A stretch of 64,000 nt of DNA from the NCBI GenBank assembly GCA_030390025.1, contig CM059431.1, forward strand, positions 104,658,001 to 104,722,000, read 5' to 3'. The notes under the pieces are model-generated. The model was given only the letters and a program-made list of their open reading frames with translations. It was not told the origin of the DNA and searched no databases. Positions 3,684 through 64,000 of the stretch are shown piece by piece. A program made the position numbers and the translations under genes. Position 1 is the first letter of the stretch, and every line of letters begins with the position of its first letter. The stretch comes from Squalus acanthias. Taxonomy: Eukaryota.

Positions 3684-4655
3684 TGGGGTTGCCATCCATC
3701 CACGATTGCCCTGGAGTCTCCAGGAGTGAAAGATTAATCTCCATAAGAACATAAGGATTAGGAGCAGGAGTCGGCCATATGGCCCCTCGAGCCTGCTCCG
3801 CCATTCAATAAGATCATGCTGATCATCGACCTCAACTCCACTTTCCCGCCCGAGTCCAAAAATCTATCGATCTCAGCCTTGAAGATACTCAATGACCCAG
3901 CTTTCACAGCCCTCTGGGGCAGAGAATTCCAAAGATTCACAACCCTCTGAGTGAAGAAATTCCTCCTCATCTCAGTCTTAAATGGCTGACCCCTTATCCT
4001 GAGACTATGCCCCCTGATTCTAGCCTCTCCAGCCGGGGGAAACAACCTCTCAGCATCTACCCTGCCAATCTCCCTCAGAATCTTCTATGTTTCAATGAGA
4101 TCACCTCTCATTCTCCTAAACTCCAGAGAGTATAGGTCCATTTTACACAATCTCTCATCATAGGACAGCCCTCTCATCCCAGGAATGAATCTAGTGAACC
4201 TTCGTTGCACCGCCTCCAAGGCAAGTATACCCTTCCTTAGATCAGGAGATCAAAACTGTGCACAGTACTCCAGGTGTGGTCTCACCAAGGCCCTGTACAA
4301 TTGTAGCAAAACTTCCTCACCCTTATACTTCAACCCCCTTGCAATAAAGGCCAACATGCCATTTGCCTTCCTTATTGCATGCTAGCCAGGACCCTGCTCG
4401 AAAAAACTCAGGAGAAAAAAGCACAGGGGCATTAAAAAAAATGTGTCCTTTTTAAAAAAATTCTTTGAACACTTTTATCCAATCGTGTCATGAAGAGTCT
4501 ATTCACGTTCTGTTTGGCGTGGGGAAGGCGGAGCACCATAAGGATGGACATGTCGGGTGACCAATGGTGGAAGCGTCGGCGGCGGGGTGGTTGGAGGCCG
4601 GAGGTCATGTGATGGAATCCTCCAGGAATACGCCCAGCCAGAATTGGCCACCCTA
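3684..4655. mobile_element. Non-autonomous hAT-type element interrupted by a CR1 fragment
   Basis: TIR TGGGGTTGCCA / rc TAGGGTGGCCA; 8-bp flanks GCGAAACG / GCGAAACT (7/8), the TSD length typical of hAT. Confidence 0.7.
3745..4383 (-). mobile_element. CR1 LINE 3' fragment
   Basis: ORF 3758-4045 RGHSLRI..RRNFFTQRVVNLWNSLP; (TTCTTATG)-type tail. Confidence 0.9.
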
Positions 4656-9569: not shown

Positions 9570-10040
9570 ATCATAGAAACTTACAGCACAGAAGGAGGCC
9601 ATTTGGCCCATTGTGCCTGTGCCTGTGCTGGCTCGCAGGTACTCCTCCAGAACCTGTCCAACTCCCTTTTAAAATTATTGATGGAATCAGCTTCCACCAC
9701 CTTTTCAGGTCGAGTGTTCCCGATCCCGACAACTCTCCGAGTGAAAAGATTTCTCCTCATCTCCCCTCTAGATCTTTTGCCAGTCAATTTAAATCTCTGA
9801 CCTCTGGTGATTGACCCACTCGCCAGCGGTAATAGTCTTTCTCTCTCTACTCTATCAAAACCTCTCATCGTCTTGAAAACCTCTACAAGGTTACCTCTTA
9901 GCCTTCTCTGTTCCAAGGAGAACAGTCCCAACTTTTCCAACCTCTCCTCATAACTGAAGTCCCTCATCCCCTGGTGACATCCCTAGTACATCTCCTCTGC
10001 ACCCGTTCGAAGGCCGTTACATCGTTCCTGAAGTGAGGTG
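9570..10040 (-). mobile_element. Older CR1 LINE 3' fragment
   Basis: ORF 9581-9967 SYEERLEKLGLFSLEQRRLRG. Confidence 0.85.
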
Positions 10041-13004: not shown

Positions 13005-13984
13005 TGTGACTCCGTGTTCTAGATTTCCCAGCCAGGGGAAACATTTTCTCAGCATTAACCCTGTCCAGCCCCTTAAGAATTTTATATGTTTCAATAAGAT
13101 CACCTCTCATTCTTCTAAACTATAGGGAATATAGGCCTAGTCTACTCAATCCCTCCTCATAGGGCAATCCCCCCATCCCAGGAATCAGTCTGGTGGACCT
13201 TCATTGCACTCCATCTAAGGCAAGTATATCTTTCCTTAGGTAAGGAGACCAGAACTGTACGCAGTACTCCAGGTGTCACCTCACCAATGCCCTGTATAAT
13301 TGCAGTAAGACTTCTTTACTCTTATACTCTAATCCCATTGTAACAAAAGCTAACATACCATTTGCTTTCATAATTGCTTGCTGTACCTGTATGTTAACTT
13401 TCTGTGATTCATGTACAAGGACACCCAGGTCCCTCTGAATACAAAAATTTCCCAGTCTTTCACCATTCAAAAAATATACTGCTTTTTTGTTTTTCCTACC
13501 AATGTGGATAACTTCACACTTCCCCACATTGTAATCCATTTGCCATGTTCTTGCCCAGTCAATCAACCTGTCCATATCTCTCTGCAGCCTCTTTGCATCC
13601 TCCTCACAGCTTACTTTCCCACCTAACTTTGTATCATCAGTAAACTTGGATACGCTACACTCAGTCCCTTCATCTAAGTCATTAATATACATTGTAAAAA
13701 GCTGAGGCCCAAGCACTGATCCTTGCGGTACCCCGCTAGTTACAGCCTGCCAACCCGAAAAAGTCCCGTTTATTCCTACTCTCTGTTTTCTGTCCATTAA
13801 CCAATCCTCAATCCATGCTAATATATTACCCCCCATCCCATGAGTCCTAATTTTGTGTAATAACCTCTTGTGTGGCTCCTTATTGAATGCTGTTTGAATA
13901 TCCAAATACACTACATCCACTGGTTCCCCCTTATCCATCCTACTAGCTACATCTTCAAAACACTCTAACAGATTTGTCAAACAT

Positions 13985-15997: not shown

Positions 15998-17946
15998 GCC
16001 TTTCTGTCGTTGTCCCTTCTCATGCTCAGAGCGCAACTTTCTACACACAATCAACATCATCTCCTGCTGTTCTCAAGTGCTATCTAATCAATTCTGACGT
16101 CTAACCTCTCGCACTTCTGAGATGCCACTTTACATTTAACCACACTGACATTTAATATTTGCAAAAAGAAAAGAAAAGTGCCTAATATAGAGGATAATGA
16201 TGCTATTTTGCATACCATATGCAGCATAACGATGCCTGTTTCAAGCCAAGATAAACTACTTGCCAATGCAACATGCTGTTCTCAAGATGAAAGAAACACC
16301 ATCCACGGCTTTTTGCAGAGCCCAGTCTAGAGACAAATGAGGCTTTATCTTCAAAACTGCTGCCAGGCTAAACATCTATCACTGACTTACAATGGCTGCG
16401 GTGTGTGTACTGTTCATAGGATGAACGTCTTAGGACCCCAGATTTGCATTCTGGATGCTCGGTAGGGCATCAGGATGGCATCGCCCGGATCAGAACTGGC
16501 CGCTAACCTTGTCCCTGCTGCTTCCCGCCCAGTGGAGCCACTGAAAGTCTCTCCCTAGAAGGATTACTTGGGCAGTGATCGCCCCCCCCACTATTACAGT
16601 GGGAGAACACTATAAGCAAAGAAGTTTGCATTTCCCCTACTTTATTCTACATCGTCCTATGAAGCTCACCTACATAACCATTAAGGTCACCCTGGTCAAA
16701 TGAAAATGTGTCCCCGTGTTATCAAGATTAAAATATTGGGCCAAACCTTGCTGGAAGAATAACGGTTTGTTAACGACGCACGCCGCTATTAATGTGCAAA
16801 ATCGGCCCCCAATTTCAGGGGATGAGGAAATACGCTGTGAGTTGCGAATCTCCAGAACTTGCTGGTAGATTTACGCCGCCCCACTGTTTGCTTTTCACAA
16901 ACGGCATCTCGCCCTCAACCTCTTTGTTATTCTTAAGAACTTGCTGGGTTTGCACATTAATTGCCCATTAAACTCGTCGCAGAAAGTTCGGGGCTGTAAG
17001 GAAGAGAAGTCCTTTTGGACACAATTTTCAAGCTGGACATTCAACCAGCATGCTTTGGGAAGCTGGGAACAGCGCTGATCGGAGAAAAGTTTGTTTTAAA
17101 ATTAAAACCTGCTGAACTGTGGCAAAGCAGCGAAACCAGAAGGAACAAAGACTTTGGGCTCGATTTTGCCAGGCCTGAGGAGGCGGGAATGGAGGCGTGT
17201 GAGTTGTAAAAAGCGCTAAAAATGGCGGGCGGGTCCGATCCAACCTCCATCCCGCCTCCGAGCAATTTTACCACGTTCGTGGTTTCAGACCCTGTTTCCA
17301 TCCCGCCTCCAAGAGGCAGGATAGGCCCTTAAGGTCCTTAACTACCAGTTAATTGCCTCTACAATCCCATTTTGAGAGGCCTTTCTGAATTTAAGACTTT
17401 TCCCCCGTGCTGCACGTCTCCTCTGGAACACGTCAGTTAATTCTGGTGGCCTCACAAGTGGATGGCTTACTAACAGCTGCAGCTCCACTATTAAAAAGGA
17501 CTTTTCACCAATGATCATTTGCAGGTGGCAGAACTTTGTTGTCTCAGGTCTGGGGGAACTTTTAGCAGGCATACTCATTGTTGTGGAAGTTTGGAGCCTG
17601 ACACCCATCTCCAGTGTGACCTCCTGGGAAACCCCTCTCCCCACATTGACTGAGCACTTCCTCAACTGAGGTATATACCAGAAGCATGGGAACCATCTAT
17701 TTCCTTTCCTCCTGGACATCAGATTCGGACAAAGACCAGCCGCGGCAGCAGCAGAACCCTGGACAACAGCATCACCAACAGCAGCAGTAACAACAGGAGC
17801 AACAACAGGATCTCCAAGCTGCTGCTCACTCACCTGAAGCTGCACAGGCCAGAAGGAGCCAGCACATGGAAGCACGTCGGCGCAGGAGATACCCCCAAAA
17901 CAGGGTCTACAGACAGAGGATCAGCTACCTCAACATGACAGGGTGT

Positions 17947-18409
17947 CAGAGGCGCCGGACCTGGGTGGAGCGGCTGCGGCGAGGCGGAGGACTCAAGAGG
18001 CGGCGACGACCAGGTAGGCCCACAGAGGCGGCGGACCTGGGTGGAGCGGCTGCAGCGAGGCGGAGGACTCAAGAGGCGGCGGCGACCAGGTAGGCCCACA
18101 GAGGCGGCGGACCTGGGTGGAGCGGCTGCGGCGAGGCGGAGGACTCAAGAGGCGGCGGCGACCAGGTAGGCCCACAGAGGCGGCGGACCTGGGTGGAGCG
18201 GCTGCAGCGAGGCGGAGAACTCAAGAGGCGGCGGCGACCAGGTAGGCCCACAGAGGCGCCGGACCTGGGTGGAGCGGCTGCGGCGAGGCGGAGGACTCAA
18301 GAGGCGGCGGCGACCAGGTAGGCCCACAGAGGCGGCGGACCTGGGTGGAGTGGCTGCGGCGAGGCGGAGGACTCAAGAGGCGGCGGCGACCAGGTGGGCC
18401 CACAGAGGC
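17947..18409 (+). repeat. Six tandem 76-bp GC/CpG-rich monomers in the CR1 5' UTR (candidate internal promoter)
   Basis: Units start at 17947, 18023, 18099, 18175, 18251 and 18327, with few substitutions. Confidence 0.9.
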
Positions 18410-18605
18410 TTTTAAAGTGCGGGACGCAGTGGTTGCTGGGTAGGTGATTAATTTTTACCTGTATATAAGTTGGGCGGTTCCTAAACCCGAGACACTACAC
18501 TTGTAGTGTCCCCCACCCTTCCTCCTCCTCTAACCTAAAGGAGGTGAGTGACTATCAGGTAAGCTCTTTTTTGTTCTAGTTTAATCTGCAAGTTAGCTGG
18601 AGGGG

Positions 18606-19532
18606 ATGGCAGGGGAGGCAGTGAAATGTTCCTCCTGCAGAATGTTTGAGGTGAGGGACGCCGTAGGTGTCCCTGCTGATTACACCTGTGGGAAGTGCAC
18701 CCATCTCCAGCTCCTCGAAAACCGTGTTAGAGAACTGGAGTTGGAGCTGGATGAACTTCGGATCATTCGGGAGGCAGAGGAGGTCATAGATAGAAGTTTC
18801 AGGGATGTAATTACTCCAAAGCATGAAGATAGATGGGTGACGGTGAGAGGGGCTAGGAGGAAGCAGTCAGTGCAGGGATCCTCTGTGGTCGTTCCCCTCA
18901 GTAACAGGTATACCGCTTTGAATACTGTTGAGGGGGACGACTTACCAGTGGTAAGCCACGGTGACCGGATCTCCGGCGCTGGGTCCGTCCCTGTGGCTCA
19001 GAAGGGAAGGGGGGAGAGCAGGAGAGCAATAGTTATTGGGGACTCAATAGTCAGAGGGACAGATAGGAGGTTCTGTGGCAGCAAAAGAGACTCACGGATG
19101 GTATGTTGCCTCCCGGGTGCCAGGGTCCGTGACGTCTCGGACCGTGTTTTCAGAATCCTCAAAGGGGAAGGGGAACAATCACAAGTCGTGGTACACATCG
19201 GTACCAACGACATAGGTAGGAGAAGGGACGGGGATTTAAAACAGGAATTTAGGGAGCTAGGTTGGAAGCTGAGAGCCAGTACAAACCATGTTGTAATTTC
19301 TGGTTTGTTGCCGGTGCCACGTGCTAGCGAGTTGAGGAACAGGGAGAGAGTGCAGATAAACACGTGGCTGCAGGGATGGTGTAGGGGGGAGGGTTTCAGT
19401 TATGTGGATAATTGGAGCACATTCTGGGGAAGGTGGGACCTGTACAAACAGGACGGTTTGCACCTGAACCAGAGGGGCACCAATATCCTGGGAGGGAAAT
19501 TTGCTACGGCTCTTCGGGGGGGTTTAAACTAA
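18606..19532 (+). CDS. CR1 ORF1p: C4 zinc finger, leucine zipper, SGNH/GDSL esterase domain
   Basis: CSSC..CGKC; LLENRVRELELELDEL; IGDSIVRG, HIGTND, DGLHLN; 308 aa, uninterrupted. Confidence 0.93.
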   Translation: MAGEAVKCSSCRMFEVRDAVGVPADYTCGKCTHLQLLENRVRELELELDELRIIREAEEVIDRSFRDVITPKHEDRWVTVRGARRKQSVQGSSVVVPLSNRYTALNTVEGDDLPVVSHGDRISGAGSVPVAQKGRGESRRAIVIGDSIVRGTDRRFCGSKRDSRMVCCLPGARVRDVSDRVFRILKGEGEQSQVVVHIGTNDIGRRRDGDLKQEFRELGWKLRASTNHVVISGLLPVPRASELRNRERVQINTWLQGWCRGEGFSYVDNWSTFWGRWDLYKQDGLHLNQRGTNILGGKFATALRGGLN

Positions 19533-22429
19533 TTTGTCAGGGGGATGGGAAAAAGGGCTGTAGTCCACGAGCCAGTGGTGAGTGTAGGGAGGTACTGAGG
19601 AGGGTATCAAGGTCGCAGGAATGTACCGGCAGACAGGAAGATGGCTTGAAGTGTGTCTACTTCAATGCAAGGAGCATCCGGAATAAGGTAGGAGAACTTG
19701 GAGCGTGGATTGGTACTTGGGACTACGATGTGGTGGCCATTACGGAGACATGGTTAGAACAGGGACAGGAATGGTTGTTGGAAGTTCCGGGGTATAGATG
19801 TTTCAGTAAGAGTAGGGAAGTTGGTAAGAAAGGTGGAGGAGTAGCATTGTTAATCAAGGATAGTTTAACAGCGGCAGAGAGGCAGTTCGAGGGGGATCTG
19901 CCGTCTGAGGTAATATGGGCTGAAGTTAGAAATAGGAAAGGAGCGGTCACGTTGTTAGGAGTTTTCTACAGGCCCCCAAATAGTAATAAAGATGTGGAGG
20001 AAGAAATTGCAAAGCAGATTATGAATAGGTGTGGAGGTCACAGAGTAGTTGTCATGGGTGACTTCAACTTTCCAAATATTGATTGGAACCTTTATAGGTC
20101 AAACAGTTCGGATGGGATAGTTTTTGCACAGTGTGTGCAGGAGGGTTTCCTGACACAATATGTGGATAGGCCGACAAGAGGTGGGGCCACGTTGGATTTG
20201 GTACTGGGTAATGAACCGGGCCAAGTGTTTGATTTGTATGTGGGAGAGCACTTTGGAGATAGTGACCACAATTCGGTAACTTTCACTATTGCAATGGAGA
20301 GGGATAGGGCCATACGGCAGGGCAGGGTTTATAATTGGGGGAGGGGTAATTATGATGCGATTAGGCAAGAATTAGGGAGTATAAGATGGGAACAGAAACT
20401 ATCAGGGAAAGGCACAAACGAAAAGTGGAGCTTTTTCATGGAGCAATTACTGCGTGTCCTTGATAGGTATGTCCCTGTCAGGCAGGGAGGAAATGGGCGA
20501 GTGAGAGAACCATGGTTCACAAAAGAGGTTGAATGTCTAGTCAAGAGGAAAAAGGAAGCGTATGTAAGGATGAGAAAACAAGGTTCAGTTGGGTCGATTG
20601 AGGGGTACAAGGTAGCAAGGAATGAGCTAAAAAAAGAGCTTAGGAGAGCTAGGAGGGGGCATGAGAAGTCCTTGGCGGGTCGGATCAAGAAAAACCCCAA
20701 GGCTTTTTACTCTTATGTGAGAAATAAAAGAATGACCAGGGTGAGGGTAGGGCCGGTCAAGGACAGTAGTGGGAACTTGTGCATGGAGTCAGAAGAGATA
20801 GGAGAGGTGATGAATGAATACTTTTCGTCAGTGTTCACCGAGGAGCGGGGCCATGTTCCTGAGGATGAGAGTGTGATAAAGGTGGATAGGCTGGAGGTGG
20901 TAGATGTTCTGAGGGAAGATGTTTTAGCAATTTTGAAGAACCTGAGGGTCGATAAGTCCCCTGGGCCAGATGGGATATATCCTAGGATTCTTTGGGAGGC
21001 AAGGGAGGAGATTGCAGAGCCTCTGGCTTTGATCTTTGGGTCCTCACTGTCCACGGGGATGGTGCCAGAGGACTGGAGAGTGGCGAATGTTGTTCCTCTC
21101 TTCAAGAAAGGAAATAGGAATGACCCTGGTAATTATAGGCCGGTAAGTCTTACTTCGGTGGTTGGTAAGATAATGGAAAAGGTCCTGAGGGATAGGATTT
21201 ATGACCATTTGGAAAGGGGCAACTTAATCAGGGATAGTCAACACGGATTCGTGAAGGGTAAGTCTTGCCTAACAAATTTGATTGAATTCTTTGAGGAGGT
21301 AACTAAGTGTGTAGATGAAGGTAGAGCAGTTGATGTCGTATACATGGATTTTAGTAAGGCGTTTGATAAGGTTCCCCATGGTCGGCTCATGAAGAAAGTA
21401 AGGAGTTGTGGGATAGAGGGAAATTTGGCCGATTGGATAAGTAACTGGCTATCTCATAGAAGGCAGAGGGTGGTGGTGGATGGAACATTTTCGGACTGGA
21501 GACCAGTTACCAGCGGTGTGCCACAGGGGTCGGTGCTGGGTCCTCTGCTGTTTGTGATTTTTATCAATGACTTGGAGGAGGGGACTGAAGGGTGGATCAG
21601 TAAATTTGCTGATGACACCAAGATTGGTGGAGTAGTGGATGAGGTGGAGGGCAGTTGTAGGCTGCAAAGAGACATTGATAGGATGCAGAGCTGGGCCGAA
21701 AAATGGCAGATGGAATTTAACCCTGATAAGTGCGAGGTGATTCATTTTGGTAGGGCAAATTTGAATAAGGATTACAGGGTCAACGGCAGGGTTCTGAGGA
21801 ATGTGGAGGAGCAGAGGGATCTGGGGGTTCATATCCACAGATCTCTGAAGGTTGCCACTCAAGTGGATAGAGCAGTAAAGAAGGCCTATGGTGTGTTGGC
21901 GTTTATTAACAGAGGGTTTGAGTTTAAGAACCGTGAGGTTATGCTGCAACTGTACAGGACCTTGGTGAGACCACATTTGGAATATTGTGTGCAGTTCTGG
22001 TCACCTCACTATAGGAAGGACGTGGAAGCATTGGAAAGAGTGCAAAGGAGATTTACCAGGATGCTGCCTGGTTTGGGGGGGAGGTCTTATGAGGAAAGAT
22101 TGAGGGAGTTGGGGCTTTTCTCTTTAGAGCGGAGGAGGATGAGAGGCGACTTAATAGAGGTTTATAAGATGATGAGGGGGATAGATAGAGTGGATGTTCA
22201 GAGACTATTTCCTCGGGTAGAGGCAGCTGTTACAAGGGGGCATAACTATAAGGTGCATGGGGGGAGATATAGAAGGGATGTCCGAGGTAGATTCTTTACT
22301 CAGAGAGTGGTTGGGGTGTGGAATGGACTGCCTGCTGTGATAGTGGAGTCGGACACTTTAGGAACTTTCAAGCGGTTATTGGATAAGCACATGGAGCACA
22401 CCAGAGTGATAGGGAGTGTGATAGCTTGA
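19412..22429 (+). CDS. CR1 ORF2p: APE endonuclease + reverse transcriptase (true start uncertain)
   Basis: [26 protein letters not shown] (EN); [17 protein letters not shown] (RT); annotated start is TTG and the first in-frame ATG lies inside the EN domain. Confidence 0.95.
19520..19532 (+). other. Candidate -1 ribosomal frameshift site (G_GGU_UUA overlapping U_UUA_AAC, then UAA)
   Basis: ORF1 ends GGT TTA AAC TAA; ORF2 is in the -1 frame and open across this point. Confidence 0.55.
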
Positions 22430-23781
22430 TCTTGGTCTCGGACAATGCTCGGCACAACATCGAGGGCCGAAGGGCCTGTACTGTGCTGTACTGTTCTATG
22501 TTCTATGTTCTATGTTCTATGACTGAGCAGCTGTGCCAAAGGAGGCTCAGACTTTCGCGAGAGGTAGTCGCTGACATCTGTGCAATGCTGCAGCAAGACC
22601 TGGAGCCCAGAGAATCCGGTGGACACCCCTTACCAGTGGCCGTTAAAGTCACCACCGCACTCAACTTTTTTGCTTCAGGCTCATTCCAGGGATCAGCAGC
22701 AGACATCAGCAGCGTCTCCCAGGTGGCCGCGCACACTTGCATCACGCAGGTAGCCGATGCCCTCTTTGCCATCGCGCACAATTACATCAACTTCTCCAAG
22801 GATCAAGCAAGTGTAACTGCGCGTGCGGTAGGGTTTGACAATCTGGCAGGCTTTCCAAAGGTGCAGGGCGTCGTTAACTGTACATATGTGGCCCTTAAGG
22901 CACTCCATCACAATCCAGGTATTTTTGTCAACCGCAAGGGCTTCCAGTCCCTCAACGTACAGCTGGTATGTGACCACAATAAGGAAATTTTGCATGTTTT
23001 TGCCAAGTACCCTGGCAGTTGCCATCACTCCTTCATCCTGCACCAGTCTAGTGTGCCTCCGCTCTTCAGTCCGCCAGGCCAACTTTTCGGATGGCTACTT
23101 GGAGACAAGAGCTATCCCCTGAAGACGTGACTAATGATGCCGTTGAGGAGCCCTTCCAACGACGCTGAGGAATGCTACAACTCCAGCCACATTGCCACCA
23201 GATCCATAATCGAGCAAACCATCAGCTTGCTGAAGATGCGATTCAGATGCCTTGATAGATCAGGTGGAGCCCTGCAGTACTCAGCAGCCAGGGTCTCCAG
23301 AATCGTCTTGGTCTGCTGTGCACTTCACAACATGGCACAGCATCGTGGCTTGCAGCTGTCTGAGGTACAAGTGGCTCATCACATAGCCTCCTCAGATGAG
23401 GAGGAGGAGGAGGAGAGCGACAACGAACAGCTTGCAGAGGCGCATCAACCAGCGGCAGCAGCACGCGAGCACATTGCTGCCCAGGATGCAAGGGACGCAC
23501 TCACCTTGGCCAGATTTGCTTAGCCTGCACAAGCAAACACGCTTGCATCGTACCTTCTTACCAGAGCATCGAGAATGGACAAGAACGTGTGGATTCCTAT
23601 CACTCTGACCACCATACTGACAATTGCAAGTTGCCCTAAGGCCTCAAAGTGGAAGTCCCATTTGCGAAATGACACAGGCCACAACTCCAACAGTTTGCCA
23701 TCAAATTTGTTTATCATCACAATTCACGGATGGCTTTGCAAAAATAAACACAACACAACACCCAAGTGACTACCCTTATGA

Positions 23782-31480: not shown

Positions 31481-32025
31481 TTAAGAACATAGGAAATAGG
31501 AGCAGGAGTCGGCCATTCGGCCCCTCGAGCCTGCTCCGCCATTCAATAAGATCATGGCTGATCTTCTACCTCAACTCCACCTTCCTGCACTAACCCCATA
31601 TCCCTTGAATCCCTTAGTATCCAAAAATCTATCGATCTCAGTCTTGAATATACTCAACGACTGAGCATCCACAGCCCTCTGGGGTAGAGACTTCCAAGGA
31701 TTCACAACCCTTTGAGTCAAGAAATGTCTCCACATCTCAGTCCTAAATGGCCGACCCCTTATTCTGAGTCTGTGACCCCTGGTTCTAGACTCCCCAGCCA
31801 GGGGAAACAGCATCTACCTTGTCAAGTCCCTTAAGAATGTTATATGTTTCAATGAGATCATCTCTCATTCTTCAAAACTCTAGGGAATAGAGGCCTAGTC
31901 TACTCAATCTCTCCTCATAGGACAATCCCCCCATCCCAGGAATCAGTCTGGTGAACCTTTGTTGCACCCCCTCCAAGGCAAGTATATCCTTCCTTAGGTA
32001 AGGAGGCCAAAACTGTACACAGTAC
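31481..32025 (-). mobile_element. CR1 3' fragment inserted in an older L2 remnant (about 31300-32240)
   Basis: ESRTRGHRLRIRG..TQRVVN; CR1 tail at 31481. Confidence 0.85.
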
Positions 32026-32539
32026 TTTGGAGCTTAGGGCCTTGACGGCTGAAGCCACAGACTCCAACGGTGGGATGAAAGGAATAGGAGATGCACAAGA
32101 GGACATGGCTGGAGCAACGCAGAAATCTCGGAGGGTTTTAGAGCTGGAGGAGTTCACAGCGATCGAGATCGGCCAGATGTGAACATGAGGATGAGAATCT
32201 TAAATTGGAGTTCTGACAGCCAGTTCCCAGTGAGGAGCGCACACCAGAGGTTGGTTACAGAGTCTGTATCATGTTGCGGCACTCCTGTTCTTAATAGAGA
32301 GAGTAATGATCCAAGGAAATACGCAGCTTTAACTCGTGCATTACTGCTGGTTACTGGGTATGCCAAACACACTGCCGGTTCTATCAATTTCCAGGAAGTG
32401 CAATCTTACCTTCAGCTGATCTGATTAGATATCGACGTCCTGCCCTGATTAGATAAACCTTGGTCTGATCAGTCCATCCTTCCCTACGCTGATCAGTTCC
32501 TCGTTCCCCTGCTAGCATTAATAAATTAATAAAAAAATG

Positions 32540-43689: not shown

Positions 43690-45330
43690 GTGGGTGCTGT
43701 GCTAATACGACATGCCTGTTTGAAAGTCTGGCTTTAGCAGGCAATTGTGGGGCTAATTGATGATTACCATGATTTAAACTTCCCCTGAGGAGCTAAAACA
43801 AGACACCGGCAGGTTTAGCACTCAAGTGCTGATAAGAAGCAATCTTCGTGGCGCGGGATCTGTGGCCTCCACGCACCCACGTCCACTGAAGGTGCGGAGT
43901 GCGTTGGCTGACACACGACGGAATGTTACAGGATGGCTCGGGGACGGAGGGAAAGGGCGCACAGTTTCTCGGACATGGCACTGGAGGCACTGGTGGAGGA
44001 GATCCAGATGAGGAGGGATGTCCTGTATTCGCAGGAGGTAAGGAGTCCACCTCGCCCTCCTGTCCCCCTCTCCTGCAGCAGCTGCTCTACCTTGGCCTCA
44101 TGCCCTCCTCCCATTCCTCGTCCAGACCATGGGGGATCCCCAGCAAGATGCCGGTGACCAAGCACTCCCTTTCTCCTGGTGACTCCAATAAGGTAGAGCA
44201 GCACATAGAAACATAGAAGATAGGAGCAGGAGTAGGCCATTCGGCCCCTCGAGCCTGCTCCGCCATTCAATGCGATTATGGCTGATCATCCAAATTCAGT
44301 ACCCTGTCCCTGCCTTCTCCCCATATCCCTTGATCCCTTTAGCCTTAAGAAATATATCTAACTCCTTCTTGAATATATTTAATGAATTGGCCTCAACTGC
44401 CTTCTGTGGTAGAGAATTCCACAGGTTCACCACTCTCTGGGTGAAGAAATTCCTCCTCATCTCAGTCCTAAATGGCTTACCCCTTATCCTTAGACTGTGA
44501 CCCCTGGTTCTGGACTCCCCCACCATCGGGAACATCCTTCCTGTATCTAGTCTGTCTAGTCCTGTTAGAATTTTATTAGTTTCAATGAGATCCCCTCTCA
44601 TTCTTCTAAACTCTAGCGAATACAAGCCCAATCGACCCAATCTCTCTTCATACGTCATTCCTGCCATCCCAGGTATCAGTCTGGTGAATCTTCGGTGCAC
44701 TCCCTCCATGGCAAGAACATCCTTCCTCAGATAAGGTGAACAAAACGGCACACAATACTCAAGGTGTGGTCTCACCAAGGCCCTGTACAACTGCTGCAAG
44801 ACATCCTTGCTCCTGCACTCGGATCCTCTCGCTATGAAGGCCAACATACCAGCACTCACTCTCTTTAGGTGAAGTCCTCAGAGACTTTCCGGAGTAAATG
44901 TTGATAGAGTGTCGGTGAAGTCTTGACAAAGTGTCCCAGAAAGTCTCCTGATGTGTTTCAAACAACCTCTTCAAACCTCCAGCCGCAAGTGAACAGTGAA
45001 AGCTGAGAATAGCTTCATCTTGCGCTCGAAATCCTCAACAATGACTTGTTTACTCCCGTTCAGCTGGCCGCTGTTAGAAGAGGTTGTTAATTGAAGTGCT
45101 AGCCACCAAAATGCCGTGCTGCCTCTTTAATAAGCGTTAGCAGGCAATTTAATTGTAAATCAGCCCCTTAACGATCCTCGGGGTGGCCGTTCCTAATGCG
45201 TTCTTCAAATCCTTTACCAAGATGTCATCTTGCGCTAAACGTGGGCTAAACCGGGGTTGCAGCTCAAGACCCCATCTTGGCCACCTCGGAGGCTCTTTAG
45301 CCCCTAAAGTATCCAGGGCAAATCACCCCC
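43690..45330. mobile_element. Old Harbinger derivative with a Myb/SANT remnant on the + strand (left end not resolved)
   Basis: ORF 43933 MARGRRERAHSFSDMALEALVEEIQMRRDVLY; right end GGCAAATCACCCCC. Confidence 0.55.
44205..44850 (-). mobile_element. CR1 3' fragment
   Basis: ORF 44296-44859 [19 protein letters not shown] on both flanks. Confidence 0.9.
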
Positions 45331-55409: not shown

Positions 55410-56261
55410 AATGATTGTTAACCAAGTCAAATCTGTACAGAGCAGGATCACAGTATAGCACTTAGTGAAGAGTAACTTAACTCCTCCTTGCTAGAGGCAT
55501 CAAAGACTGAGCTTAATGCAGAGATGCATTAACTAGCACTTTAATAATATGATTAATACCATCACAAGGTTCAGTAAGTAAACTGATGCTTAATATCAAC
55601 CAATAGAATCTAAATTACCACAATAATTTACATGTATTGCAACATCTCAGCTGGAACTGAATATCGCTTCATAAAAGTACAAGAATGTCCAAGGTTACAG
55701 TACAAACTATGCAAGTTAAGTTTATAGTCCATACTCAGCATTTCAATGTAGGTTTCCAATGTGAAGACATTCCCCTTTGCAATGTGAGCATAAAGTCGTA
55801 CAACTTGCCTGGAGTAGCAGAATACATTACTGTTGGGCTGTTCTCTCTTCCCCTGAGAAGCTCTGGCCTCACCACCGGGGATGCCTGTGGTGTGTCAAAT
55901 GGCCAGGAACCTCCTCCGAGCTGTTCTCACACTGCAACTATAACTTCTCCAGAAGAGCAACGGAAACTCCGTTTTGGTTTCTGCTGCACTTCCGGTGAAG
56001 TCGCGCCAGTGGATTGGGAGCAGTTTTTGAGGAGATTCCTGACCACTGTTCGCGATTGTGGTCTTTCTTCAGTCATTGTCTTCTCTTCCTTGCCTTTAGT
56101 TAATTGCGCAAATAGTATCATTCTCGGTTGATCCTGTTGTGATACTATTTATAGTTTCTGCTCTACTTTGATCTAAATGCTTAACATTTCTTAAATCCTC
56201 TAACTTTACACTCTTAACTTTCAAAGACTGGCTTGAGCCTTCTAACCTCCATCAACTCTCC

Positions 56262-56660
56262 TGAGAGCAGAGAAGGCTCAGAGGAGATTCAATAGAGGTG
56301 TTTAAAATCATGACGGGTTTAGATAGAGTAAATAAAGAGAAACTGTTTCAATGGCTGAAGGGTCGATAACGAGAGGGCACAGATTGAAGGTGATTGGCTT
56401 AAGAACCAGAGGTGACATGAGGAAAAACATTTTTATGCAACGAGTGATTAGGATTTGGAATGCGCTGCCTGATAGGGTGGTGGATACAGATTCAATAGTG
56501 GCCTTCAAAAGGGAATTAGATAAATACTTGAAGGAGAAAAAATTGCAGCGATATGGGGAAAGAGCGGAGGAGTGGGACTAACTGGATTGCTCTTCGAAAG
56601 AGCCGGCGCAGACTCGATGGCACGAATGACCTCCTTCTGTGCTGTACCAACTGATTCTAA
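56262..56660 (+). mobile_element. CR1 3' fragment
   Basis: SITRGHRLK..FMQRVIRIWNALP. Confidence 0.8.
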
Positions 56661-58067: not shown

Positions 58068-61000
58068 ACAACAACAACAACTTGCATTTATATAGAGCCT
58101 TTAACATAGTAAAACGTCCCAAGGCGCTGCACAGGAGAATTTTAAGACAACAAATTTGACACCGATCCACATAAGGATAAATTAGGGCAGGTGACCAAAA
58201 GCTTGGTCAAAGAGGTCGGTTTTAAAGAGCGTCTTAAAGGAGGAGAGAGAGGTAGAGAGGCAGAGAGGTTTAGGGAAGGAATTCCAGAGCTTAGGGCCTA
58301 GACAACAGAAGGCACGACCACCAAAGGTTGAGCGAGTATAATCAGGGATGCTCAAGAGGGCAGAATTAGAGGAGCGCAGCTATCTCGGGGGGTTGTGGGG
58401 CTGAAGAAGATTACAGAGATAGGAAGGAGCGAGGCCATGGAGGGATTTGAAAACAAGGATGAGAATTTTGAAATTGAAGCATTGCTTAACCGGGAGCCAA
58501 TGTAGGTCAGCGAGCACAGGGGTGATGGGTGAACGGGACTTGATGCGGATTAGGACACAGGCAGCCAAGTTTTGGATGACCTCAAGTTTGCGTAGGGTGG
58601 AATGTGGGAGGTGTAAGGGATTCTGACCCTGCGTGTCTCGCAGCCTGTGAGGTTCACGCGGCTCTGTGCAGCCTGTATGTCAGTGCGGGTCTAGGCCTTG
58701 TTGCCTGTTCTGGTCTCCAGCCAGTCTGGGAACACTAGACACACCTGTGAGTGGTTCGAATCACTCGCCCTTACGGTTCTAGACACTGGACTTAGATGCG
58801 AGAGCAGTAATGGAGATGAAACTCATGTAGACTCGGTTGAATGGTACGAAATGGAAAATCTTTATTGCATGATAATTAAAATTATGAAATACATGTCATA
58901 AGCACAGATTAATGACAGTACAATCTTACAAGCAGTTATATAGCTGATCCTAGGGAAACGAGGAACGAACGACACACCGTAAATAGGGGCACACATTACA
59001 AGTATCCTTAATACTTAAACCCTCCCCTATCAATATCTATCCTAACTAGATTCGTAGGATTTCGAGACTCATGCTCACCACTCGTGATAACTCGGAGAAA
59101 TTCCGAATAGCTGATCGGATGTTTTTCACCGCAGCACCCACGTGTCGGTCAGGAGATCTCCTGGTCCCACTTGTTTACTTGCTTCTGCTGCTCCGGCTAG
59201 CAGGCTGGACCGTCTGCTGTGATGAAGACCTGTGTTGGTTGGTTTAACAGGTACTTTTCCGAGCACAGTTCAGTCAATATCATCGATGTGATATCGTTCT
59301 TTGCAAGTTCGAAGAAGTCTCCCTGGCAAGGAAAACTTGGCTATTCGACCTACAGGCGCGGTCGGGATTTACTGACCGTGGCGATGAATATGGTCTTCCT
59401 CTCTTCTCATCTCATCTCATCTCATCTCATCTCATCTCGTCTCATCTCGGGCCTTTGGTTCCGCTGCCAGTTACCAACATAGGTCTTCGTTACGCGACAC
59501 GAGGTAGATCCGAACGGATCAGAAAGTTCAACAGTCCTTTTCAAAGAGGCACCAGGCAAGCAGGAGCCCGACTACGAGTACACAGGAGCAGCCACGAGGT
59601 TACGAATAAGAGCACAGGAGCAGCCACGAGGATAAGCGAAATAAGAGAAAGATGGACGGTTTGGAGCCTGCAATTATAGTGCAAAATCTTCCGTTTCCCG
59701 CCCAACCTTAATGTCCATTCTTTTGTTAGGGTCTGGCGCTCAAATGTCTTGTATGGGTGATCTCCGTTCTTAATGGGTTTCGGGGCTACTCGTAAATGTC
59801 TGAGTACCTGTTAATATTTCTCCCATTGTTAAATCGGTCGGTGTTCTCCCTGGAGGGGTTGTGGGGCTTCCAAGTGTTTTGTATAACTACCCGCTAACGG
59901 CTCTCTCATCGTAGAGTCGTTGGGATTTTACATATTAATGTCCTTTGGATGGGCCCTTGATTACTCGGTACAATAGCTTTCATTCGTACCTGGGAGACCG
60001 ATTTCAGTATTTATGTGTATACTGCAAACCCATAATGTCTCGTGTATTATCTTCACTGTGCTGAATCTTAATCGATCTTGCACAAATGTTTATTGGAACG
60101 CCATCTTGTCTGCCTGTTGAAAAGTCTAGAATGTTCTGTCACGAGGTGCGGCGGCCATTTTACAGGCTGCTTGTGTCCACTTTGAAAACCTGGCAGCATT
60201 CTGCTGAAATAAAAGCTGTTTGAACGAAACTTTGTGTTTTCTCCTTATTAAAATGAAATCGCGATATATTGCGAATTCTACAGAGGCCAGCCAGGAGTGC
60301 GTTGGAATAGTCAAGTCTAGAGGTAACAAAGGCATGGATGAGGGTTTCAGCAGTGGATGAGCTGAGGCAAGCGCGGAGACGGGCGATGTTACGGAGGTGG
60401 AAATAGGCGGTCTTTGTTATGCTGCGGATATGTGGTCGGAAGTTCATTTCAGGGTCAAATGTGACACCAAGGTTGCGAACAGTGCTGTTCAGCCTCAGAC
60501 AGATGTTAGGGAGAGGGATGGAGTCAGTGGCGAGGGAACGGAGTTTGTGGTGGGGACCGAAAACAATGGCTTCAGTCTTCCCAATATTTAATTGGAGAAA
60601 ATTTTCGCTCATCCAGAACTGTAAGTTGGACAAGCAGTCTGACAATTTAGATACCGTGGAGGGGTCGAGAGAAGCGGTAGTGAGGTAGAGCTGGGTGTCA
60701 TCAGCGTACATGTGGAAACTGATGCTGTGTTTTCGGATGATGTCACCAAGGGGCATCATGTAGATGAGAAATAGGAGGGAGCCAAGGATAGATCATTGGG
60801 GGACATCAGAGGTAACGATGCGGGAGCGGGAAGAGAAGCCATTGCAGGTGATTCTCTGGTTATGATTAGATAGATAAGAATGGAACCAGGCGAGTGCAGT
60901 CTCACCCAGCTGGACGACGGTGGAGAGGCGTTGGAGAAGGATGGAGTGGTCAACCGTGTCAAAGGCTACAGACAAGTCAAGAAGGATGAGGAGGGATAGT

Positions 61001-61182
61001 TTACCTTTGTCACAATCACAAAGGATGTCATTTGTGACTTTGATGAGAGCCGTTTCGGTACTGCGGCAAGGGCGGAAAACTGATTGGAGGGATTCAAACA
61101 TGGAATTGTGGGAAAGATGGGCACGGATTTGGGAGGTGATAACACGTTCAAGGACTTTGGAGAGGAAAGGGAGGTTGGAGAC
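58068..61182 (-). mobile_element. L2 LINE (RT to 3' end) split by a solo LTR
   Basis: LLDLSVAFDTVDH, HMYADDTQLY, SRLDYSNALL; (CAA)n tail. Confidence 0.9.
58612..60282 (-). mobile_element. Solo LTR, 1671 bp
   Basis: TGTA..TACA termini; exact 4-bp TSD GAGG (58608-58611, 60283-60286); removal restores the L2 sequence GGGAGGCCAGCC; AATAAA on the minus strand near 58861; internal (CTCAT)n. Confidence 0.8.
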
Positions 61183-61249
61183 CTCAAAGGCTCCAGTTTT
61201 CCAGAGGGAAGCAATCACTTAAATTGGACATATATTGGGATAAATAAAA

Positions 61250-61390
61250 TCAAAATACTGCGGAAACTTTTTTTTATCCCAAATAAAAACAGAAAATGCT
61301 GGAAATACTCAGCAGGTCTGGCAGCATCTGTGGCGAGAGAAACAGAGTTAACGTTTCAGGTCGATGACCTTTCGTCAGAACTGGTGAAAA
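61250..61390 (-). repeat. Penelope-like repeat
   Basis: Same family as 2625-2824; single arm. Confidence 0.65.
61346..61382 (-). ncRNA. Minimal type I hammerhead ribozyme motif
   Basis: rc reads AGUU-CUGACGA-A-AGGUC-AUC-GACCU-GAA-ACGU-U-AACU. Confidence 0.6.
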
Positions 61391-61409
61391 GTCATCGATC
61401 TGAAATGAT

Positions 61410-64000
61410 GGGCCGGATTTTGAGACCCCCACGGGTGCGAACGAGGTGCGTACCCGCTCGTAGAGGCTGCGCAAGTGCCGGTTTCAGGCATGTGAAGCAC
61501 ACGCGCTGAAAACCGGCACTTGTATCTGTCAAGAATTCTCTTGACAGATCCTCCGCCTGCCCGGGAAAAGTGCCTCCACGGGTGGAGTGTTGCGCTTTTT
61601 GCACAACCTCCGCCCGCTGAATGCCTGTCAAATTCTTACGCCTTGTAAAGAACATAAGAAACAGGAGCAGGAGTAGGCCAATCGGCCCTTCGAGCCTGCT
61701 CCGTAAGGCCTGCTTCTACCAGCTTAAGAGTTTAAAAAAATAGAAAAATGAAATTTGATAACTCATTTATAAATTAAAAATACTCTTCAAAAAGGTAAGT
61801 TTATTTTAAGCCCCGTAAAAACATTTAATTATTTTTTTTCAAAAATTAAATTTTTGTTTAAAATATTTAATTAAATGGCATTTTAATTAATTTTAAATAT
61901 GTAATTTTTTTCTAAATTGATTTAATGTGTTGGTATATTTTTTTAGGTGATCCCCGACAACATCCCGGCTATCGTGCTGAAGACATGTGCTCCAGAACTA
62001 GCCGCGCCTCTAGCCAAGCTGTTCCAGTACAGCTACAACACTGGCATCTATCCGACAATGTGGAAAACTGCCCAGGTACAGTACGTCCTGTCCACCAAAA
62101 GTAGGACAAATCCAATTCGGCCAATTACTGCCCCATCAGTCTACTCTCAATCATCAGCAAAGTGATGGAAGGTGTCATCGACAGAGCTATCAAGCGGCAC
62201 TTACTCACCAATAACTTGCTCACTGATGCCCAATTTGGGTTCCACCAAGACCACTCGGCTCCAGACCTCATTACAGCCCTGGTCCAAACATGGACAAAGG
62301 AGCTGAATTCCAGAGGTGTGGTGAGCGTGACTGCCCTTGACATCAACAACAACAACTTGGATTTATAGAGCGCCTTTAACATAGTAAAACGTCCCAAGGC
62401 GGTGCATTGGAGTATTTTAAGACAAAAAATTTGACACTGATCCACAAAAGGATAAATAGGGCAGGTGACCAAAAGCTTGGTCAAAGAGGTAGGTTTTAAG
62501 AAGCGTCTTAAAGGAGGAAAGAGAGGTAGCAAGGCGGACAGGTTTAGGCAGGGAATTCCAGAGCTCAGGGCCCAGGCAACAGAAGGCACGGCCACCAGAG
62601 GCTGAGCGATTATAATCAGGAATCCTCAAGAGGGCAGAATTAGAGGAGCGCAGCTATCTCGGGGGGTTGTGGGGCTGAAGAGATTACAGAGATAGGAAGG
62701 GGCGAGGCCATGGAGGGATTTGGAAAGGCAGCATTTGACCGAGTATGGCATCAAGGAGCCCTAGTAAAACTGAAGTCAATGGGAATTGGGGGGAAAATTC
62801 TCCACTGGCTGGAGTCATACCTAGCCCAAAGGAAGATGGTTGTGGTGGTTGAAGGTCAATCATCACAGCCCCAGGACATCGCTGCAGGAGTTCCTCAGGG
62901 CAGTGTCCTAGGCCCAACCATCTTCAGCTGCTTCATCAAGGACCTTCCCTCCAACATGTCAGAAATGGGGATGTTGGCTGATGACTGCACAGTGTTCAGC
63001 GCCATTCACATCTCCTCAGATAATGAAGCAGTCCATGCCCGCATGCAACAAGACCTGGACGACGTTCAGGCTTGGGCTGATAAGTGGCAGGTAACATTCG
63101 CGTCACAGAAGTGCCAGGCAAAGACTATCTCCAACAAGCGAGAGTCTTACCACCGCCCCTTGACATACACCGGCATTACCATCGCCAAATCCCCCACCAT
63201 CAACATCCTGGGGGGTCACCATTGACTAAAAATTTTACTGGACCAGCCACATAAATAATGTGGTAACAAGAGCAGGTCAGAGGTTAGGTATTCTGCGGCG
63301 AGTGTCTCACCTCCTGACTCCCAAAGCCTTTCCACCATCTACAAGGTACAAGTAAGGAGTGTTAATGAATACTCTCCACTTGCCTGGATGAGTGCAGCTC
63401 CATCAACACTCAAGAAGCTTGACACTATCCAGGACAAAGCAGCCCACTTGATTGGCACCCCATCCACCACCTTAAACATTCACTCCCTCCACCACCGGTG
63501 TACCGTGGCTGCAGTGTGTACCATCTACAAGATGCACTGCAGCAACTCACCAAGGCTTCTTTGGCGGCACCTCCCAAACCCGCGACCTCTTCCACCTAGA
63601 AGGACAAGGGCAGCAGGCGCATGGGAACACCACCACCTCCAAGTACCCCTTCAAGTCACACACCATCCTGACTGAGAGGTATATCGGCCGATCCTTCATC
63701 ATCGCTGGGTCAAAATCCTGGAACTCCCTCCCTAACAGCACTGTGGGAGTACCTTCACCACACGGACTGCAGCGGTTCAAGAAGGCGGCTCCCCACCACC
63801 TAAATGCTGGCCTTGCCAGTGACGCCCACATCCCATAAACAAATTTTTAAAAATATACTTTTGACAGTTCTGTACGTACGGACCTGTCAAAAGTATGAAT
63901 GGGGATTCCCTTCTTCCATTGGTTGGGCCGGTCCACGAGATCCCAGGGGCGCCTACGAACCGCTTGCGCCCCTGGGATACGTGGGGCTCTGCCCGCGCGG
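61410..64000. mobile_element. Harbinger-type MITE, family C (runs off the window), with nested LINE fragments
   Basis: Collinear with 45390-46916 at 61410-61955 and 63855-64000; a short CR1 tail (about 61649-61702) is flanked by GTAA. Confidence 0.8.
61956..63852 (+). mobile_element. LINE B (CR1-like clade), RT to 3' end, interrupted by L2 (about 62345-62723, -)
   Basis: [58 protein letters not shown]. Confidence 0.85.

Follow-up and report, generated by a model that had tools for sequence, protein, structure and literature searches.

A conserved slippery heptamer at the ORF1/ORF2 junction of a shark CR1 retrotransposon and the probable use of a -1 frameshift to reach ORF2

How does a ribosome reach the second open reading frame (ORF) of a retrotransposon when the first ATG of that frame lies inside the endonuclease domain it encodes? 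The question is raised by a CR1-type long interspersed element (LINE) at 17940-22518 of a 64,000-nucleotide stretch of the Squalus acanthias genome (GenBank assembly GCA_030390025.1, contig CM059431.1, positions 104,658,001 to 104,722,000 of the forward strand), here called the window, to which all coordinates refer. The element is intact and full-length and lies on the plus strand. The evidence assembled below suggests that ribosomes probably reach its ORF2 through a programmed -1 frameshift, which would yield an esterase-endonuclease-reverse transcriptase fusion of about 1,274 amino acids, and that the shift is likely stimulated by the adjoining stop codon and a downstream G-tract. A sequence-only reading of the same stretch had proposed the frameshift and the fusion together with a possible stimulatory pseudoknot; the former two gain strong comparative support, whereas the pseudoknot does not. 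Papers cited by PMC number are drawn on for the parts of their text or supplement that were covered.

ORF1 (18606..19532) starts with the ATG at 18606 and encodes 308 amino acids ending in Leu-Asn-stop, its 3' end reading CGG GGG GGT TTA AAC TAA. The heptamer U_UUA_AAC, the predicted -1 shift site, occupies 19523..19529 in X_XXY_YYZ phase and directly abuts the ORF1 stop (19530..19532), just where the sequence-only reading had placed it. An overlapping heptamer that it also named, G_GGU_UUA (19520..19526), is likewise in phase and is common at the ORF1 ends of sharks and rays, in which Gly precedes Leu-Asn; however, it is absent from the bird-like loci described below and is not conserved beyond this Gly-Leu-Asn class. 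ORF2 lies in the -1 frame with respect to ORF1 and is open from stop to stop at 19412-22429 (stop codon at 22427-22429), hence across the heptamer. The 41-codon linker from the heptamer to the start of the endonuclease (19523..19645) contains no stop in the -1 frame, and two and four in the others. It leads into an APE-type endonuclease (19646..20269; Pfam match PF03372, E 6.9e-22, at ORF2 residues 83-286), which is followed by the reverse transcriptase domain (21110..21829; PF00078, E 6.7e-37). From the heptamer on, the -1 frame has no AUG until codon 167, and the first in-frame ATG of ORF2, at 20021, corresponds to residue 204. A functional ORF2 protein cannot begin at this ATG, which is preceded by 121 codons of the Pfam endonuclease match. 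Canonical heptamers in phase are found at 2 of the 303 codon positions of ORF1 and at 4 of the 924 of ORF2 (6/1,227, about 0.5%), making it unlikely that one stands at the very last codon position by chance, and conservation in relatives settles the question.

At the DNA level this conservation was examined in 42 loci, of which 16 contain the junction, three stop short of it and 23 have no usable match to the ORF1 end. One metagenome scan contributed 39 loci, bird-like by best protein match, and the 16 junction loci come from seven assemblies, eight of them from a single one. Thirteen were anchored by tblastn with ORF1 minus its last two residues (L008 was re-anchored by one base by eye); the other three were found by a motif-like regular expression and are therefore biased. 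The exact heptamer is present in 11 of the 13 tblastn-anchored loci and in two of the three located by pattern, 13 of 16 in total, even though the ORF1 of these bird-like loci is only about 30-38% identical to that of the window. In the window and the 15 loci that are long enough, the seven positions are conserved in 16, 16, 16, 15, 15, 15 and 14 of 16 sequences, as against a mean of 9 of 16 at upstream third codon positions. The leucine codon of the heptamer is rare elsewhere, TTA accounting for 10 of 142 Leu codons upstream (7%); AAC accounts for 18 of 36 Asn codons. The heptamer is thus kept beyond the amino-acid constraint in relatives from shark to bird, which is the comparison that the sequence-only reading had proposed.

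The motif itself was also searched in the first 400 letters of each consensus in the covered portion of the PMC13343379 supplement, the ORF1 end being judged by eye. Here, 18 of 23 matches to the heptamer plus stop are located at the ORF1 end of a CR1-group consensus, representing 12 vertebrate species codes that span shark, ray, chimaera, coelacanth, bowfin, teleost, frog, lizard and crocodilian. The stop at these 18 junctions is TAG in 11, TAA in six and TGA in one. None of the 10 matches to variants in the first letter of the heptamer stands at a junction, and none of the 23 inspected matches to synonymous variants (45 in total) stands at an ORF1 end. The 10-mer of heptamer and stop has a further copy in the 5' untranslated region (UTR) of SquAca_CR1-3 and SquAca_CR1-18, past a donor-like site, and the consensus AldAff_Crack-2, labelled Crack, has the end of an esterase ORF1 together with the CR1 junction motif at its start and is possibly chimeric or mislabelled.

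Variation around the junction was obtained by aligning contigs from four read runs to the window at a 4% threshold, with differences near contig ends hidden. Of the 31 variable places listed, 23 fall within 19440-19515, whereas 19516-19567 has none. In the divergent contig X16 record 20 (19422-19550), 19 of the 21 differences are attributed to places up to 19515. Four divergent contigs listed align up to 19550, the end of the G-tract, and then break off. Elsewhere, viral contigs gave three weak esterase matches (the junction is absent from the two that were checked), no match to the motif and no relative of ORF2, and GTDB gave one 506-bp fragment only.

The ORF1 end is also recognizable in proteins. 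Among 108 ORF1 homologues, the 68 that extend to the last helix include 61 scored as ending in Leu-Asn, P0010 being one more; the named relatives include sharks, rays, frogs, an eel and a penguin. In a pooled set of 241 proteins, 116 end in Leu-Asn, preceded by residues of 14 kinds. A first U in the heptamer demands a U-ending codon for the preceding residue, and Met, Trp, Lys, Gln or Glu, which have no such codon, precede Leu-Asn in only one of the 116, compared with a background of 17%; strictly, this comparison detects a pyrimidine-ending codon, and as the proteins are related no p-value is claimed. The distance of Leu-Asn from the esterase fold varies: it lies 25-39 residues from the DGxH motif where it is retained, five to six residues further out in an invertebrate-type family related to a Lamellibrachia match, and 13 residues further out in other relatives, and many distant esterase homologues end without it. 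The position of the motif therefore follows the stop and not the fold. The invertebrate-type family (P0192, P0194, P0199 and others), most members of which end in Tyr-Leu-Asn, has an SH3 domain (PF00018, PF14604) on the N-terminal side of its esterase. CR1 ORF1 sequence was also encountered under the labels of Pseudomonas aeruginosa and Providencia alcalifaciens (P0006 and L042:167-337), probably as vertebrate contamination.

A more distant class of esterase ORF1-like proteins shows a different ending. All eight Gly-Asn-ending representatives (P0308, P0313, P0319, P0323, P0327, P0328, P0329 and P0356), known from their protein sequence alone, have Gln before it, and a Gln-Gly-Asn end fits a second putative slippery heptamer, G_GGA_AAC. 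In the covered consensus sequences of PMC13343379, G_GGA_AAC plus stop has three matches, none at an ORF1 end. Both U_UUA_AAC and G_GGA_AAC are listed among the heptamers on which mammalian ribosomes shift most readily (PMC5009743).

Where, then, is ORF2 entered? In 11 of the 16 loci the -1 frame is closed one to two codons 5' of the heptamer, and upstream near-cognate initiation is rejected on this ground as a general mechanism. Downstream, an uninterrupted -1 frame leads from the heptamer in register into the endonuclease in nine of the 14 sequences that allow the test (ten are in frame), with linkers of 33, 41, 47, 83, 84 and 89 codons across loci, and in the nine open sequences the other two frames of the linker carry 2-10 stops. 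The closed upstream frame together with the open linker places ORF2 entry at the ORF1 stop or within a few codons of it, which fits frameshifting and reinitiation alike.

Behind the stop and a variable 7-nt spacer (19533..19539) follows a G-tract at 19540..19549, consisting of five Gs, two variable letters and three Gs, which I consider a candidate stimulator. It starts 11 nt past the heptamer (10-nt spacer), and its five leading positions are G in 15, 16, 16, 16 and 14 of 16 sequences. For the first Gly of the tract, 15 of 16 sequences use GGG, compared with 32 of 83 in the ORF2 of the window. The conserved signal spans 27 nt. The sequence-only reading had pointed to these G-runs and, as the stimulator, to a pseudoknot pairing GGCT with AGCC and CCAC with GTGG. 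The runs and the four 4-mers (19556, 19565, 19570 and 19575) do exist as letters, but the structure (19556..19578) begins 26 nt past the heptamer, and only 1 nt would be left for its third loop, which is implausible for an H-type pseudoknot. Folding of the downstream 46-150 nt, the check that the reading had suggested, was no more stable than that of shuffled sequences (z -0.35 to +1.43). Other candidates were also rejected: the best partners of a BYDV-type long-range pairing are not at homologous places, a hairpin predicted some 25-30 nt downstream in the bird-like loci L005, L011, L014 and L019 is neither significant nor general, and a G-quadruplex is predicted in three of 16 sequences and not in the window. 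With no conserved RNA structure, a pause would be predicted from the adjoining stop and the G-tract.

Three properties of a canonical -1 frameshift site are present here: an in-phase X_XXY_YYZ heptamer before the stop, a -1 frame that is open from the heptamer on, and conservation beyond what the amino acids need. I propose that most ribosomes would terminate at the ORF1 stop and release the 308-residue esterase protein. In a minority, paused by the stop directly behind the heptamer and by the G-tract, which starts 11 nt past the heptamer and may bind a protein, tRNA-Leu and tRNA-Asn would re-pair one base back, so that CUA is read in place of the stop. These ribosomes would continue through the linker into endonuclease and reverse transcriptase and make the fusion protein. 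Judged from the sequences compared, the junction signal is real and deeply conserved, and tandem slippage would be the only explanation for exactly seven fixed letters.

Several observations weigh against this proposal. The loci are related to one another and half come from one assembly, and hence are not independent. Three of 16 depart from the heptamer; as none of these three is in frame with its own endonuclease, decay is likely. A canonical stimulatory structure sits 5-9 nt downstream of the shift site (PMC3542737), and none was found there in the 16 sequences (z -1.66 to +1.56). Rfam has no match for the junction region, and duplexes between the junction and the 3' UTR are no better than shuffles (fractions 0.09-1.0). 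Some of the consensus sequences covered, for example AldAff, lack the G-tract or have an unclear one, and several of these seem to have lost letters. No intact natural in-frame fusion of the vertebrate clade was identified among 34 longer protein matches, which were partly inspected; these are mostly bird and frog gene models, and a motif script located the junction in few. One of them, P0128, is a chimeric call, and P0141 and P0150, in which a shortened esterase continues in frame into the endonuclease, are probably deletion copies. Finally, a start-like codon is found in the ORF2 frame one to two codons past the stop in 12 of 17 junctions (ATG in six, GTG in three, TTG in two, ATT in one), and UAAUG occurs in three of the 18 consensus junctions, though the window has UAAUU and lacks the SART1-type overlap.

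These start-like codons make the main rival stop-coupled reinitiation as in SART1, L1 or caliciviruses, by which ribosomes would restart in the -1 frame at or just past the ORF1 stop and make a separate ORF2 protein, the conserved letters being a termination-reinitiation signal. The open linker and the closed upstream frame are equally compatible with it, SART1 and L1 do use such coupling, and caliciviral restart tolerates changes of the start codon (PMC5972666); in the window, a near-cognate ATT (19532-19534, -1 frame) overlaps the stop. However, five of the 17 junctions have no start-like codon, including L011, the ORF1 end of which is 97% identical to a penguin protein, and its position differs, being codon 4 of the -1 frame in shark-type and codon 5 in bird-type junctions, so that none is universal. 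Nor does reinitiation predict that the U before TTA should be invariant, that the rare TTA codon should be used, or that a Gln-Gly-Asn class should obey the same heptamer rule. I consider it an unlikely explanation of the junction by itself, though it could run beside frameshifting, and both may operate.

Two further explanations appear very improbable. The conserved letters might have another role at the RNA level, as a splice signal, a site of transcriptional slippage or a packaging site, with ORF2 being translated from a processed RNA. G-tracts can act as splicing signals, and some bird-like loci (L007, L008) have AG|GT at the stop, but this is not conserved, the window having TAA|TT. Moreover, by cis preference a LINE copies the RNA that encoded its reverse transcriptase, so that joined or one-base-inserted daughter copies should be common; in the four-run alignment no indel is listed at the junction, and the only joint, in a single contig, has ends other than GT..AG. 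Equally remote is a constraint on the proteins only, Leu-Asn-COOH serving the esterase and Gly-x-Gly the N-terminus of ORF2, in which case the slippery look would be incidental and the start of ORF2 unrelated. Leu307 and Asn308 are indeed invariant in alignment A1, the rows of which were picked among Leu-Asn-ending proteins, yet many homologous esterases lack Leu-Asn, synonymous alternatives are unused, and GGG is preferred at the first Gly of the G-tract. The codon data largely refute this explanation.

The remaining anatomy of the element is that of a canonical vertebrate CR1, a group defined by its esterase ORF1 (PMC4120745, PMC13343379). ORF1 has CxxC..CxxC close to its N-terminus, resembling a zinc finger, and an SGNH esterase at about 19032-19478 (PF13472, E 3.7e-13); its profile matches the ORF1 esterase of PDB 4c1b (E 5.5e-41), and its nearest named relative is from the shark Mustelus asterias (74% identity). 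The 5' UTR (17940..18605) includes an array of 6.1 copies of a 76-bp monomer with 96% matches (17947-18409). Just 5' of the ORF1 ATG, at 18438-18592, three donor-like sites (about 18440, 18544 and 18559), a branch-point-like 5-mer at 18530 and a pyrimidine tract with AG at 18578 were noted by eye, indicating a possible 5' UTR intron. The 3' UTR (22430..22521) ends in a tail of 7-bp tandem repeats (22492-22521) and lacks poly(A). The assignment to CR1 is based on the ORF1 homologues and on the junction shared with published CR1 consensus sequences. The element is flanked by a 5-bp target-site duplication, ATGAC at 17935..17939 and the matching 5-mer at 22519..22523, and the rejoined flanks form a single Harbinger-like transposase frame (DDE_Tnp_4; 17791-17939 plus 22519-23523), which has an extra in-frame stop at 23128-23130. 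Further CR1-like, 5'-truncated and more distant reverse transcriptase fragments are located at 3854-4378, 9638-10038, 13006-13965, 31619-32027, 44356-44851, 56256-56545 and 60307-63534; all other CR1 pieces of the window are 5'-truncated and lack the ORF1/ORF2 junction. Six sequencing runs presumed to be RNA contain 97% of words, and run X21 yielded six reads only.

As a mechanism, -1 frameshifting is known; what is unusual here is the structure-free context. The coronavirus IBV uses the same U_UUA_AAC in the same phase before a start-less polymerase ORF in the -1 frame (PMC3542737, PMC5009743), whereas the CR1 site has no structure 5-9 nt downstream, a stop abutting the heptamer, a conserved G-tract and a vertebrate LINE as its host. 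Among APE-type LINEs, ORF2 of Dictyostelium TRE5-A and TRE3-A is stated to be reached by a -1 frameshift (PMC5911963), but these amoebozoan elements have an unrelated ORF1. The nsp2 shift of PRRSV, trans-activated by nsp1-beta and PCBP, depends on a short motif about 11 nt 3' instead of a structure (PMC5009743). An unstructured conserved motif at this distance is also found in CR1; however, the PRRSV motif is C-rich with known binders and that of CR1 is G-rich, without the PCBP motif, so that the likeness is an analogy of position only. SART1 with its UAAUG coupling and mammalian L1 with termination-reinitiation also tie ORF2 to the ORF1 stop on a bicistronic LINE RNA (PMC5972666), but in both an AUG for ORF2 is located at the junction or close to it. 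A homologous SGNH esterase ORF1 is found in zebrafish ZfL2-1 of the L2 clade (PDB 4c1b, PMC3905857). Its ORF2 has reportedly been proposed to be reached by suppression of the stop codon (Kajikawa 2012).

A literature search found no paper proposing a frameshift in CR1 and no account of CR1 ORF2 translation without an AUG, although the primary CR1 and L2 papers of 1997-2012 lay outside this search and may contain one. CR1 is not mentioned in the roughly two-thirds of a 2016 review that were covered, and 'translat' is absent from the covered main text of the 2026 CR1 survey (PMC13343379).

More tentatively, and with some doubt, the proposal could extend to esterase-bearing CR1s across jawed vertebrates and to related invertebrate-type elements, which would make a Gag-Pol-like fusion by a structure-free -1 shift with a stop behind U_UUA_AAC or G_GGA_AAC and, after a fixed 10-nt spacer, a G-tract bound by a trans-acting factor, a signal that would have been kept since before the split of sharks and birds. 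The CR1 group is the dominant retrotransposon in most vertebrates and makes up 22-34% of shark and ray genomes (PMC13343379). If frameshifting is indeed used, the actual reverse transcriptase protein of these elements would be an ORF1 fusion of about 1,274 amino acids, which would alter both the annotation of CR1 and the design of retrotransposition assays and would challenge the view of vertebrate LINE ORF2 as a separate protein. A structure-free stimulator would be a new class of relevance to the recoding field, and the reverse transcriptase would be tethered to a membrane-binding ORF1 multimer.

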